A DNA stretch of 32,000 bases from Nitrososphaera viennensis EN76 (lineage in GTDB: Archaea; Thermoproteota; Nitrososphaeria; Nitrososphaerales; Nitrososphaeraceae), in contig NZ_CP007536.1 in assembly GCF_000698785.1 (NCBI RefSeq), positions 750,001-782,000 on the forward strand. Reading direction: 5' to 3'. Positions within the stretch are counted from its first letter, which is position 1, and each line of letters starts with the position of its first letter. A program made the translations under genes and the position numbers. Positions 14,538 through 21,900 of the stretch are shown piece after piece. Below the pieces are notes generated by a model. That model had not been told where the DNA came from. It was given only the letters and a program-made list of their open reading frames with translations, and ran no database searches.

Positions 14538-17500
14538 GTGGCTGCAGGAAATCACTATGTGAACCTGATCATACAGGCATTAGGCCTTGAACCTGCATCG
14601 TTCCACCCTGCACCCTTCAACTTCTCCCAAAAACCTGCACCGAATGTCTGGAAAGCATTTTCCATCGAGACTGTTTTTCCCATATTCAAAATAAATGCCC
14701 CAAGAGGGAAGGTTGTAGATATCAGAAGTTTTGTTGGAGGCATACAGGCAGACACCTATGTAATAATTGCGGAACTTGACAGTGCTGTTGTTCTTTGCAT
14801 CAAAAGAGTCAACAAGCAGAAAGGCGAGCAACCCTTAATCTTGCCTCTACGGACCGAGGAAGACTTTGACAGAGTAGTAAACGTTCTTCGCAAGAACAAC
14901 TTTACTTCGGACCAGCTGTCAGCGCACATGTCAATTAGCACAGTAGTTGATGAACTAAAGTCCGGCGCAGAGCGCTATTTTATCAATCGAGGACTGTTTT
15001 CAAACTACTTTTTGCGTGAAAGGCTCGACAAGACGCTTTCAGACAGAAAGAGGAATATTCAATCAGAAAGTGCGGGATTCTTGTCCAAGTTTCCTTATGG
15101 AATACCGTCGGATTTTTCAGCGGTTTCCACCGTACTTAACGCCCTTGGATACAGAGCAAATAGCAACAAGATAAGCGGCGGCGGGAACATCGAATACGAA
15201 TTATTTTCCGGGTCTAACCGATTAACGACTGTTGTAGCTATAGCCGCCGATGCAGAAAACCTGGATGTAATGAGAAGCGACGACAGGTCTGTTCCCAGTG
15301 TTCAGGCCGTTGCCGCTCTTGACCGTTGTCAATGGGCCATCCTTACCAACGGTCGTTTATGGCGACTGTATTCCTCAAAAGTCTCTTCGGCAAGCACTAA
15401 TTACTTTGAAGTTGACATCGATGGTATAACTGACGAAAAAGATCCCAAGCTCAAGTATTTCCTCTCATTGTTTAGTGCCAACGCCTTGGAGCCGAAAGGC
15501 AGCGAATCTGACCTAGATGTTATCTTTGAAGAAGGAATACAGTATGCCAAAGAACTCGAAGATAACCTTAGGAATAAAGTCTTTGAAAAGCAACTCTTTC
15601 TTGACCTGGTACGTGCCGTCATCAAGCATTCACCCTCAAAGAAATACTCGGAGGAAGTGCTGGCAGAAGGAAAGAAAAGAGCGCTAAAACTGCTTTACAG
15701 ACTATTATTCATATTATATGCTGAATCCCGTAATTTGCTGCCCACAGGCGACTCGAGATACGAACACATTTCCATGAGCAAGTTAAGAGAGCGACTTCCC
15801 TCACTAGAAAAGGAAGGAAATGGTGCCCAAGCATGGCAGGCTTTGCAAAATCTTTTCAAGGCAATCAGCAGCGGGGATCCCAATGTCAACGTGCCGCAAT
15901 ATGACGGAGCGCTCTTTGAACACGACAAGGATATCGACAGCCTAGAAGTGTTGAACAAACATCTTGTCCCCGCATTACGAGCATTGACAGAGATCGATGG
16001 CAAAGGTATCGATTATCAGAATCTTGGCGTAAGGCAGCTTGGGTCTCTATATGAAGCGCTTCTTGAATATACTGTAAGCCAAGCCCAAACAGACCTGGTC
16101 ATTATCAAGGATGAAATTTTAGACATGTCATTTATCTCGGATCTTAAGGGTAAACCAGAACGCATCATCGAGAGAGGAGACATTTACCTTACGTCAGGAG
16201 GTCTGGCAAGGAAAGGAACTGGCAGTTACTATACTCCAGACAAGATCGTAAAGTTCCTGGTCAAGAAAGGTCTTGAACCAATTTTTGCTGATAGAGAAAA
16301 AAAGTTCGTTCAACAGCTGGATGTCTGGCACAAGACTAGAAGCGAAGAAGCAGCGATAAAGTCTACGGAAGTTCTACTTGACATCCAAGTTGTTGACCCT
16401 GCTATGGGGAGCGGCCATTTTCTCGTTAGTGTCGTCGACGAGATTACAAGATGGATTATGGGCATCCTGGAAAGACACCCGGACGCGCCACTAGCTAGTG
16501 AAATTGGCAAAGACAGAGAGGAGATCATTCTTGAACAGGAAAAGAAAGGCATCAAGCTTGACAGAGAACTTTTAACATTCAATGTCATTTTAAAAAGGCG
16601 CGTTATGAAGAGGTGTGTCTTTGGAGTTGACATCAATCCTCTTGCAGTGGAGTTAGCGAAGCTGTCGCTCTGGCTCGACTCCTTCACAATAGGTACTCCG
16701 CTGACCTTCTTGGACCACCACATCAGGGCGGGAGATAGCTTGATAGGGCTATGGATGAATAATCTGAAGACCAAAGGTCAGGATAGCACAACCCTTGATG
16801 TCTGGACGGATAACGTTGAATCTATCGGGGATATCCTGCAAAGAATCAGCTATCCTGCAGACTTGACGATGGATGAGGTGAAAAAGAGCAAGGGCAGCTA
16901 CGAAGATTTCAAGGAAAAGAACAAACCTCTCAAGGTATTGCTAGACATGCAAGCTGCATCAGTTATTGACCCTGAGCTGGCTGACAAGCTGCCCCGGAAT
17001 TTGAAGCTAGTCGAAGATACCGTCAGATTGGGAAACATTGACAAGGTCTCGTGGTCTGCACCGATAAAGAAAGTGATGGAATATGCAGAGAAATATCGCT
17101 TCTTCCATTGGGAACTAGAATTTCCCGATGCATTTTCTGACGAAAGAAGAGGGTTTGATCTTGTGGTGATGAATCCTCCGTGGGATGCAGTAAAGCCGGA
17201 AGACGATGACTTCTTTTCCCAATATTATCCACAGTTTCGAAGATTGAGAAGTAAACCAGAAAAAGAAAAGGTAAAACGTAAATTGATAAATGACGCATCT
17301 ATTGCCAAAGCTTTCAGAGACTACACAGAGCGTATTGAGAGAAAAGTATCGTTTTACAAATTATCAGGCCAGTATGTTCGAAGGGGCGGGGGAGATACTG
17401 ATATGTGGAAACTCTTTTTGGAGCGCGCCCTTACGCTTCAAGCAAAAAATGGAACCCTTTCTATGGTCATTCCCTCGGGCATCGTAATCAACGAAGGAGC

Positions 17501-21600: not shown

Positions 21601-21900
21601 CTATTCCAGGCAGTCCATACAGGGAAAGCTACGAAAGAAGAGATCCTTCCGGTGTATTCCATAATAACCAGTGCAAACTTTACCGCATGGGATAACGATT
21701 TTAAGAAAATGTACGAGTCGTATCAGAACAATCAAGACATACACAATCTTGTAACGTCGCTGAACAAGTTGTTTGAACAATACAAAATCAAGACACGGGA
21801 ATCCCTGGCACCCAAAGAAGTGAAACCTGAAGACTTGGTGCTGGTAGGTTGTATGTTCCTCTCTAATCCGTCATTTAGAGACTGGAATATGCTTGCATAG
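18664..21900 (+). CDS. PLD (single HKD) nuclease domain fused to SNF2-family helicase
   Basis: ATG 18664 overlaps the methyltransferase 3' end by 26 nt; alternative starts are TTG 18652 and ATG 18739. HKD-like [17 protein letters not shown] is at 19105-19155. SNF2 motif I DSTGLGKT is at 19489-19512 and motif II DESH at 19717-19728. Motif III is [18 protein letters not shown], and motifs V/VI are [33 protein letters not shown]. Confidence 0.9.
   Translation: [1078 protein letters not shown]

Follow-up and report, generated by a model that had tools for sequence, protein, structure and literature searches.

The window analyzed here is a stretch of 32,000 nt from the genome of Nitrososphaera viennensis EN76, whose 16 long open reading frames (ORFs) were scanned with Pfam, PADLOC and NCBIfam. 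Two adjacent genes on its forward strand, at 14538-18689 and 18691-21900, encode a predicted Eco57I-type adenine methylase and a protein that joins an N-terminal phospholipase D (PLD) domain to a SNF2 ATPase (PLD-SNF2). On balance, and with modest confidence, we read this pair as a self-contained ATP-dependent restriction-modification (R-M) module that is carried as cargo by a mobile element and acts in the manner of type III or type ISP enzymes. The support comes from the paired motifs of the two proteins, the coupling of their genes, their co-conservation and in-step divergence, an exchange of the target recognition domain (TRD) of the methylase, and a shared base composition. Public records name the two products 'Eco57I restriction-modification methylase domain-containing protein' and 'helicase-related protein'.

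The two proteins and their genes

The methylase gene begins with GTG and ends with a TGA stop codon at 18687-18689, and its 1383-aa product is 100% identical to the N. viennensis protein in the public records AIC15140.1 and WP_075054215.1. The best Pfam match was Eco57I (PF07669, 2.7e-23), followed by weaker matches to MmeI_Mtase and N6_Mtase. The top PADLOC models were REase_MTase_IIG (5.4e-117, residues 216-1345) and DrmMI (6.1e-83), and the PglX match reached merely 5e-10. The C-terminal third (residues 832-1347) matched TIGR02987, the Alw26I/Eco31I/Esp3I adenine methylase family. Both the S-adenosylmethionine-binding motif I (DPAMGSGHF, residue 620; 16395-16421, forward strand) and motif IV, which is catalytic for N6-adenine methylation (NPPW, residue 879; 17172-17183, forward strand), were invariant in 24 homologs. 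Since motif I precedes NPPW, the enzyme is assigned to the gamma class (Eco57I/TaqI-like) with a C-terminal TRD. Judged by its sequence, the first protein is an Eco57I-family N6-adenine methyltransferase with a complete motif set. A TaqI_C domain was found in the partner methylases of several bacterial loci (L064, L038, L050, L009 and L016), and the window methylase had no match to it. Sequence searches of the methylase against the Protein Data Bank (PDB) gave merely weak PglX and TaqI motif matches, and a profile search there matched BrxX over motif I alone (E value of 1e-3).

In the PLD-SNF2 protein, Pfam matched an N-terminal PLDc_2 domain (1.6e-13), SNF2-rel_dom (2.8e-13), Helicase_C (2.5e-20), ResIII (9.6e-12) and RE_NgoFVII (5e-5), the last of which indicates that the PLD domain resembles those of restriction enzymes. 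The best PADLOC model was 'HKD+Snf2' (2.3e-69), followed by DrmD (1.2e-31), HmaA (1e-25, over the helicase core alone), DpdE and BrxH. Conservation was assessed in an alignment of 21 homologs reaching down to 44% identity. The protein has a single HKD motif (H148-x-K150-x4-D155-x5-GSSN164, numbered from ATG 18664; 19105-19155, forward strand), in which G161, S162, S163 and N164 were invariant and H148 and K150 were kept in at least 90% of the homologs. The SNF2 ATPase core extends over 19498-20952 on the same strand, with GLGKT at 19498-19512, DESH at 19717-19728, TATP at 19813-19824 and QRVGRVDR at 20929-20952. The invariant residues in this core were G279, L280, G281, K282 and T283, then D352, E353 and S354, then A385, T386 and P387, and finally Q756, R757, G759, R760, D762 and R763; T384 was nearly invariant, and H355, V758 and V761 were not listed as conserved. 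The PLD nuclease motif and the SNF2 ATPase motifs are, by this alignment, intact.

The structural model of PLD-SNF2 matched the fold of the Sulfolobus SWI2/SNF2 core, RapA and CHD1. A family-specific C-terminal domain (residues ~845-1078; 21200-21897, forward strand) had no Pfam match and was modeled as a beta-sheet with a helical bundle, with a block-mean predicted local distance difference test score (pLDDT) of mostly 76 to 89. A Foldseek search with the full model returned only generic superfamily 2 (SF2)/SNF2 helicases and gave no assignment for this domain. No Pfam match to DUF3427 or to another reader of modified bases (SRA-like) was found in the protein.

An earlier reading of the window from its letters alone (the sequence-only reading) had started the PLD-SNF2 gene at ATG 18664, 26 nt inside the methylase gene. 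This ATG is present, but it is probably not the start. In locus L087, whose PLD-SNF2 protein is 91% identical, the matching ATG is followed two codons on by an in-frame TAG, and a TTG start lies two bases past the methylase stop. In the window, TTG 18691 also lies two bases past the methylase stop, and nine bases past an AGGAG ribosome-binding site (18677-18681, forward strand) within the 3' end of the methylase gene. Because the L087 equivalent of the ATG runs into TAG and the spacing of AGGAG and TTG is shared, TTG 18691 is favored over ATG 18664 and is probably the start codon, giving a protein of 1069 aa; TTG 18652 is a further alternative. The nine-base spacing is found in L087 too, and in L088 GGGAG is followed after nine bases by a GTG that overlaps the methylase stop. 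The public annotation of this start varies, with versions of 1078, 1069 and 1004 aa; the window protein has the accessions AIC15141.1 and WP_075054216.1.

With the TTG start, the two genes therefore abut or are translationally coupled and need not overlap by 26 nt. Coupled expression, as the sequence-only reading had proposed, is well supported: the methylase gene contains the ribosome-binding site of its partner, whose likely start is 2 nt past the methylase stop, and the genes overlap or abut in relatives. Upstream of the pair, an A-rich stretch with TTATAG ~25 nt before the GTG (14505-14537, forward strand; read by eye) forms a putative archaeal promoter, and its position relative to the GTG suggests a leaderless transcript.

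The pair genes share one composition, which is unlike that of both neighbors. The GC content was 0.434 in each of the two genes, against 0.485 in the upstream UvrD gene, 0.476 in the downstream HD gene and 0.487 in the remaining window. The GC content at third codon positions (GC3) was 0.44 for the methylase and 0.485 for PLD-SNF2, compared to 0.58 for UvrD and 0.59 for HD. The earlier impression, gained by eye, that this block is more AT-rich than its flanks was thus borne out.

Conservation of the pair in archaea and bacteria

A scan of the GTDB species-representative genomes gave more than 600 matches, and the counts given here rest on the best 80 loci. An Eco57I-type methylase gene close to the PLD-SNF2 gene and on the same strand was present in 66 of these 80. 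Among the 14 loci that had none, 12 were truncated by contig ends on one or both sides and two had full flanks. In archaeal metagenome contigs with close homologs (44 to 91% identity), the methylase gene directly upstream was kept while the surrounding genes differed; such changing flanks around a retained pair were seen in L081, L083, L088, the P0014 contig, L001 and L092. The survey of conservation that the sequence-only reading had proposed therefore found the genes side by side in most of the best GTDB loci and in all archaeal contigs inspected, and the objection that they are not conserved as neighbors falls away.

The gene junctions in relatives showed 4-nt overlaps (such as in L081 and L088) or gaps of 1 to 6 nt (6 nt in the P0014 contig). 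The two proteins also diverged in step: the identities of PLD-SNF2 and methylase to their window counterparts were, locus by locus, 69/62, 55/51, 55/53, 49/44, 37/37 and ~30/30 percent. In L085 and L086, the pair had been broken up by transposases. Two gene orders were observed, with the methylase first in the clade nearer to the window and PLD-SNF2 first in a distant clade (~27% identity). The methylases of the distant clade have 1200 to 1320 aa and consist of Eco57I and TaqI_C domains with a weak DUF4391-like N-terminus. Distant loci in the range L027-L080, in which the methylase match lay ~4.6 kb downstream, were considered as Hma/BR-2 systems; Pfam showed them to be the two-gene pair in reversed order, without DUF499.

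The point where the two genes meet is an insertion hotspot (L083, L092, L007, L003 and L089). In L083, from a member of the Nitrosocaldaceae, a nucleotidyltransferase/HepT toxin-antitoxin pair is inserted at 4392-5007. The insert in L092 (14218-14700) is a 160-aa ORF without a family, which was considered to be EVE-like and for which Pfam gave no support. Further inserts lie at 8235-9982 in L007, 4834-6902 in L003 and 3994-6904 in L089. Genes wedged into some bacterial versions encode a DpnII-like endonuclease, AAA_21 with DUF4276, a second methylase with an HD protein, or DUF262 with small ORFs. By these gene neighborhoods, the pair is a real, widespread and coupled unit in archaea and bacteria.

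Exchange of the specificity region

Type IIG enzymes, type III Mod proteins and the S subunits of type I systems are known to exchange their specificity regions. Comparison with the L092 locus pointed to such an event in the methylase gene. The operons of the window and L092 have DNA identities of 82 to 84%, and the L092 PLD-SNF2 protein is 91% identical over its full length. The L092 methylase (P0122) is 91 to 94% identical over residues 1-900, as opposed to 48 to 56% over residues 901-1383. The nucleotide homology to L092 ends at 17605 and resumes at 18686, so that the putative swapped TRD segment covers 17606-18685 (forward strand) in the window; the exchanged region in L092 is 13069-14793. 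The lowest GC content (0.40) was found over 17200-18689, where the swapped segment lies. The C-terminal drop in identity is best described, from this alignment, as an exchange of the specificity region inside an otherwise conserved operon, which is typical of R-M enzymes. Inverted repeats or spare TRD cassettes, the signs of a shufflon, were looked for in the window and none was found.

A further version of the pair was observed on the 15-kb dairy plasmid pJM1F of Lactococcus cremoris (L090, 1737-10230), in the PLD-SNF2-first order. There it adjoins an oppositely oriented spare TaqI-like TRD gene and an invertase of the Mpi family, which suggests that its specificity is phase-variable; this version would be convenient for experiments. 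Inverting type IIG-like methylase genes whose neighboring coding sequences carry phospholipase D and SNF helicase domains were listed by Milman et al. 2023 (PMC9881135). The pJM1F-type pair is not discussed in the lactococcal defensome paper.

Relation to known systems

The pair was compared with DISARM, BREX, Hma, ARMADA and the ATP-dependent and PLD-type restriction enzymes, and sequence comparison places it as a relative, not a member, of DISARM class 1, Hma/BR-2, ARMADA and BREX. Nor is it a member of type III or type ISP, from which it differs in methylase class, motor family and nuclease fold. The closest architectures are the HKD-SNF2 effector of the Type-2 BREX-related (BR) systems (Rakesh and Krishnan 2026) and DrmD-DrmMI-DrmC of class 1 DISARM. 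The 16 long ORFs of the window gave no match to DrmA, DrmB/DUF1998, PglZ, BrxC or DUF499. Among the annotated genes inspected in the relatives' loci, which were not systematically scanned, no DISARM, BREX or ARMADA part was found. All NCBIfam scores of the pair for DISARM, BREX and 'phospholipD_antiphage' models were far under the cut-offs.

The likeness to class 1 DISARM lies in homologous parts, namely a DrmMI-like methylase (6e-83), a DrmD-like SNF2 protein (1e-31) and a DrmC-like PLD domain (4.7e-7). In DISARM, drmD and drmMI are neighbors and DrmMI methylates the asymmetric site ACACAG. However, the defining DrmA and DrmB core is absent from the window, and none was seen in the annotated flanks of the archaeal relatives. 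Furthermore, DrmC is a stand-alone PLD protein, as opposed to the PLD domain fused to the SNF2 N-terminus in the pair, which scored 29.6 bits against a cut-off of 133 with the DrmC_I model. The DrmD score (131 bits against a cut-off of 610) indicates homology outside the family thresholds. With respect to BREX, PglZ and BrxC had no match in the window, and the methylase was under the PglX cut-offs (400 to 900 bits), scoring 48.5 bits against 500 with BREX_1_MTaseX and less than 32 bits with the other PglX models.

The sequence-only reading had termed the methylase 'PglX-like' and described the pair as a DISARM module lacking DrmA and DrmB. Its inventory was right in that N6-adenine methylase, SNF2 and PLD correspond to DISARM-type functions, that DrmA, DrmB/DUF1998 and PglZ are missing from the 32 kb, and that neither the DISARM nor the BREX definition applies, the defining parts being absent. 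The term 'PglX-like', however, is loose for a protein that matches type IIG (5e-117) and DrmMI (6e-83) models so much better than PglX (5e-10; 48 bits). The DISARM framing also overstates the closeness, because the DISARM, BREX and Hma model scores are far under the cut-offs and the methylase is nearest to type IIG models.

Type III and type ISP enzymes (EcoP15I; LlaGI and LlaBIII) resemble the pair in that a methylase with a TRD gives specificity to an SF2 motor-nuclease, and in the swappable specificity region. In type ISP enzymes and HsdR, the nuclease is N-terminal to the motor, and the pair has the same order. These type III and type ISP enzymes use an asymmetric site and ATP-driven communication between sites, which would be expected for the pair as well. 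The differences from type III are that the pair methylase is a gamma-class, Eco57I-like enzyme with a C-terminal TRD and not a beta-class Mod protein, and that Res is an SF2 helicase with a C-terminal PD-(D/E)XK nuclease, as opposed to N-terminal PLD/HKD with SNF2 in the pair; the ResIII match is generic to SF2. The earlier description of a type III-like system with a SNF2-PLD protein in place of Res thus holds as a formal analogy but not as membership, given the gamma-class methylase and the N-terminal PLD. Type ISP enzymes differ in being single polypeptides, compared to two in the pair, and in using PD-(D/E)XK instead of PLD/HKD. With type IIG enzymes, the pair shares the combination of methylase and TRD in one polypeptide, as seen in the Eco57I, MmeI_Mtase, TIGR02987 and PADLOC type IIG matches.

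The Hma or Type-2 BR systems combine a DUF499 ATPase, a methylase, an HKD-SNF2 helicase and DUF3780, and are predicted to be R-M-like (PMC12839542); HmaA defends against T4 (PMC11232893). The pair has the same effector layout, an N-terminal HKD nuclease with a Swi2/Snf2 helicase that would work with an N6 methylase. However, no DUF499 or DUF3780 was found in the window or in those partner and neighbor genes of the relatives that were scanned with Pfam. In addition, the pair methylase is of another family, the large Eco57I/TaqI_C type with its own TRD, and the similarity to HmaA is confined to the helicase core.

ARMADA consists of ArmA (SNF2), ArmB (PglX-like methylase), ArmC (YprA helicase) and ArmD (UvrD-like helicase), and shares with the pair the combination of a SNF2 protein and a large PglX/YeeA-like methylase; in the window as in L092, the pair also has a UvrD-family helicase gene next to it. 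In contrast to ARMADA, the pair has no YprA/DUF1998 helicase, and the window UvrD protein has a C-terminal PD-(D/E)XK domain and not an N-terminal RelE domain. The UvrD gene is, moreover, missing from most relatives and unlike the pair in composition.

CglI, NgoAVII and SauUSI are precedents for a PLD-family restriction nuclease powered by an SF2 ATPase, and the PLD domain of the pair matched RE_NgoFVII. CglI and NgoAVII keep the PLD and the ATPase on separate polypeptides, recognize their site through the PLD protein and have a C5-type methylase. SauUSI acts as one methyl-dependent protein and carries a DUF3427 reader, a domain to which PLD-SNF2 had no match.

Proposed mechanism and alternative explanations

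We propose that the methylase would read a short, probably asymmetric, DNA site and methylate one adenine in it in the host DNA. On unmethylated foreign DNA, it would recruit or license its PLD-SNF2 partner, whose motor would pull double-stranded DNA through at the expense of ATP. PLD nucleases form one active site from two HKD motifs, as established for Nuc and BfiI. With one HKD motif per polypeptide and two needed, cutting would therefore require two motor-nuclease molecules to meet. Cleavage would then depend on a pair of unmodified sites, a feature shared with type III and type ISP enzymes. SNF2-nuclease homologs are known to counter phage in the Hma system (PMC11232893).

Several points weigh against this mechanism. 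We found no experiments on the two-gene family, and a search for an N. viennensis methylome assigning a motif to the methylase gene found none. The physical interaction of methylase and PLD-SNF2 is presumed in the model, and its two-site feature is deduced from the single HKD motif. DISARM, moreover, can do without its PLD protein DrmC, and its class 1 form does not act as a classical R-M system; the homology to DISARM with its dispensable DrmC therefore also allows a mechanism without cleavage.

The latter possibility takes the form of an exclusion mechanism like that of BREX or DISARM, in which methylation marks self, SNF2 blocks replication or strips proteins from unmethylated invader DNA, cleavage is not needed and the PLD domain is accessory. 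We regard this as unlikely. It is consistent with the homology to DrmMI, DrmD, BrxHII and DrmC, with the weaker defense observed on deletion of drmD and drmMI in DISARM, and with the recurrence of SNF2 with a PglX-like methylase in ARMADA and BREX type 3. However, the other parts of these systems were missing from the window and from the relatives' annotated genes as described above, and the model scores were far below the DISARM and BREX cut-offs. Furthermore, the HKD core and the helicase motifs are invariant or nearly so in the 21 homologs, which argues that the nuclease is used.

Alternatively, the methylase could be a complete type IIG enzyme that cuts with its own N-terminal PD-(D/E)XK nuclease, leaving PLD-SNF2 as a helper or second-line effector; to this, too, we assign a low probability. 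The explanation is in line with the top-ranking PADLOC type IIG model, which aligned over nearly the full length, and with Milman et al. (PMC9881135), who call the neighboring methylases homologs of the type IIG enzyme Cj0031. Those PADLOC type IIG models are prediction-derived, however, and also match the non-cleaving DrmMI and PglX.

The AlphaFold model of the methylase N-terminus (pLDDT of 81) bears on the same question. It showed a helix, three strands, a helix and three strands, followed by a helical domain, and included a nuclease-like alpha/beta subdomain with a probably degenerate active site (residues ~190-295; 15105-15422, forward strand). Its best structural match in the PDB was the type IIG enzyme BpuSI, but this match was weak (E value of 0.017, TM score of 0.16). 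A P-(D/E)-Y ... L-D pattern was conserved, and D-x-K was present in 2 of 11 aligned archaeal sequences. At the candidate (D/E)xK site, however, D243 was the sole residue invariant across the aligned homologs, and the first acidic residue at the end of strand 2 was not conserved. At the position of the catalytic lysine, two residues after D243, the window has Met, the other aligned archaeal homologs have Lys or Arg, mostly Arg, and the closest bacterial group has Pro, Lys or Met; no conserved (D/E)xK lysine was thus found in the homolog alignments. The nuclease-like N-terminal fold is probably inactive and may serve as a scaffold or docking surface. The strict co-occurrence of a PLD nuclease would also need explanation if the methylase already cuts.

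It is very improbable that the genes are unrelated neighbors, an orphan or regulatory methylase beside a modification-dependent type IV enzyme similar to SauUSI: SauUSI does offer a precedent for PLD, SF2 helicase and reader in one layout (cited in PMC12839542), and defense genes cluster in islands such as this window, but the adjacency in 66 of the best 80 loci, with both gene orders represented, a shared strand and frequent overlaps, the matched divergence and composition of both genes, the lack of any DUF3427 or other reader match in PLD-SNF2, and the self-toxicity expected when a methyl-dependent nuclease is paired with an adenine methylase, unless their specificities differ, all speak against it.

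Novelty and implications of the proposed two-gene R-M module

In the literature searched, whose coverage was incomplete and lay outside REBASE and DefenseFinder, no paper naming or testing the two-gene architecture was found. The searches otherwise turned up related multi-gene systems. The architecture is not wholly unseen, since the pairing does appear as a table entry of Milman et al. 2023 (PMC9881135) and as the PADLOC 'HKD+Snf2' model. It appears to be known merely from that entry and from this unassigned model, and to be unnamed. We consider the pair a solid, widespread candidate. Because related SNF2-methylase systems have already been described, it is not a conceptual surprise.

More tentatively, and as a possibility that we would not call likely, an Eco57I-type methylase/TRD with PLD-SNF2 could represent a distinct, widespread and unnamed R-M class with two-motor cleavage, and perhaps the minimal module of the SNF2-methylase systems. 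Class 1 DISARM (DrmD/DrmMI, with DrmC as a split-off PLD), ARMADA (ArmA/ArmB), BREX type 3 (BrxHII/PglXI) and Hma may then have been built by adding sensor or helicase partners. Should the pair work as we propose, it would be a compact two-gene R-M class that, unlike types I, III and ISP, uses PLD nuclease chemistry and a SNF2 motor. A simple experimental handle on the SNF2 and methylase pairs of the poorly understood DISARM, BREX-3, ARMADA and Hma systems would then be available as well. The swappable specificity region is a possible source of new sequence specificities. The pair is among the few candidate defense modules abundant in ammonia-oxidizing Nitrososphaerota, where defense biology has been little tested.

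Probable mobile element and neighboring genes

Krupovic et al. 2019 (PMC6563490) described NitVie-E3, an integrative-conjugative element of N. viennensis. The window ORFs include an Orc1/Cdc6 homolog and a ParB-N protein (27023-28225 and 30716-31825) as well as a UvrD-like helicase, and on the strength of these genes the pair probably sits inside NitVie-E3. The entire window is a cargo region rich in defense genes.

Upstream of the pair, 11062-14400 (forward strand) encodes a UvrD-family helicase whose C-terminal part is a PD-(D/E)XK nuclease similar to AddA and Cas4. In PADLOC it matched GajB best, and no GajA was found nearby. L092 has a copy with 48% protein identity at the corresponding position, and in L038 a distant homolog of full length is encoded upstream. 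Krupovic et al. 2019 (PMC6563490) counted this gene among the replication genes of NitVie-E3. In view of ArmD in ARMADA, a role in defense or as an optional partner is conceivable instead. Downstream, a weakly dGTPase-like protein with HD and HD_assoc_2 domains (21939-23324, forward strand) begins 39 nt past the PLD-SNF2 stop. Its gene is kept in L092 (20594-21385, 85% nucleotide identity), past an inserted GHKL-ATPase gene, and a homolog with 29% identity lies directly upstream of PLD-SNF2 in a Phycisphaerales genome (L010, 8247-9653). The HD protein may recur as an accessory or act as a dNTPase defense of its own. Membership of the UvrD and HD genes in the module was considered and rejected, as both are kept in the closest relative, L092, alone (HD also in L010), are absent from other relatives and differ in GC3; we treat them as neighbors or optional accessories.

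On the reverse strand, 6904-10944 encodes a 1346-aa protein with a zinc ribbon, DUF4011, a superfamily 1 (SF1) helicase and an MTES_1575 endonuclease domain. It matched the PADLOC models PDC-S37 (1.5e-203) and Hhe (5e-109) and scored 666 bits for ProA and 522 bits for Hhe in NCBIfam, both under the cut-offs, and it appears to be a truncated form related to the Hhe/ProA single-gene defenses. The region 81-6748 (forward strand) contains an SMC-like protein that matches Lamassu LmuB (PADLOC, 3.3e-51), followed by four ORFs without a family: one with a zinc ribbon (3257-3793), two at 3895-4440 and 4404-5471, and one with a weak P-loop match (5468-6748). No LmuA effector was recognizable in this region, which may be a divergent archaeal Lamassu. 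An SMC gene with 32% identity is also found nearby in L092. Finally, three genes within 23655-26681 match or flank the PADLOC candidate system PDC-M41: a PDC-M41A match (23655-24632, reverse strand; 4e-18), a radical-SAM protein resembling spore photoproduct lyase (24638-25744, reverse strand) and a DUF5131 protein matching PDC-M41B/M30B (25911-26681, forward strand; 2e-104).

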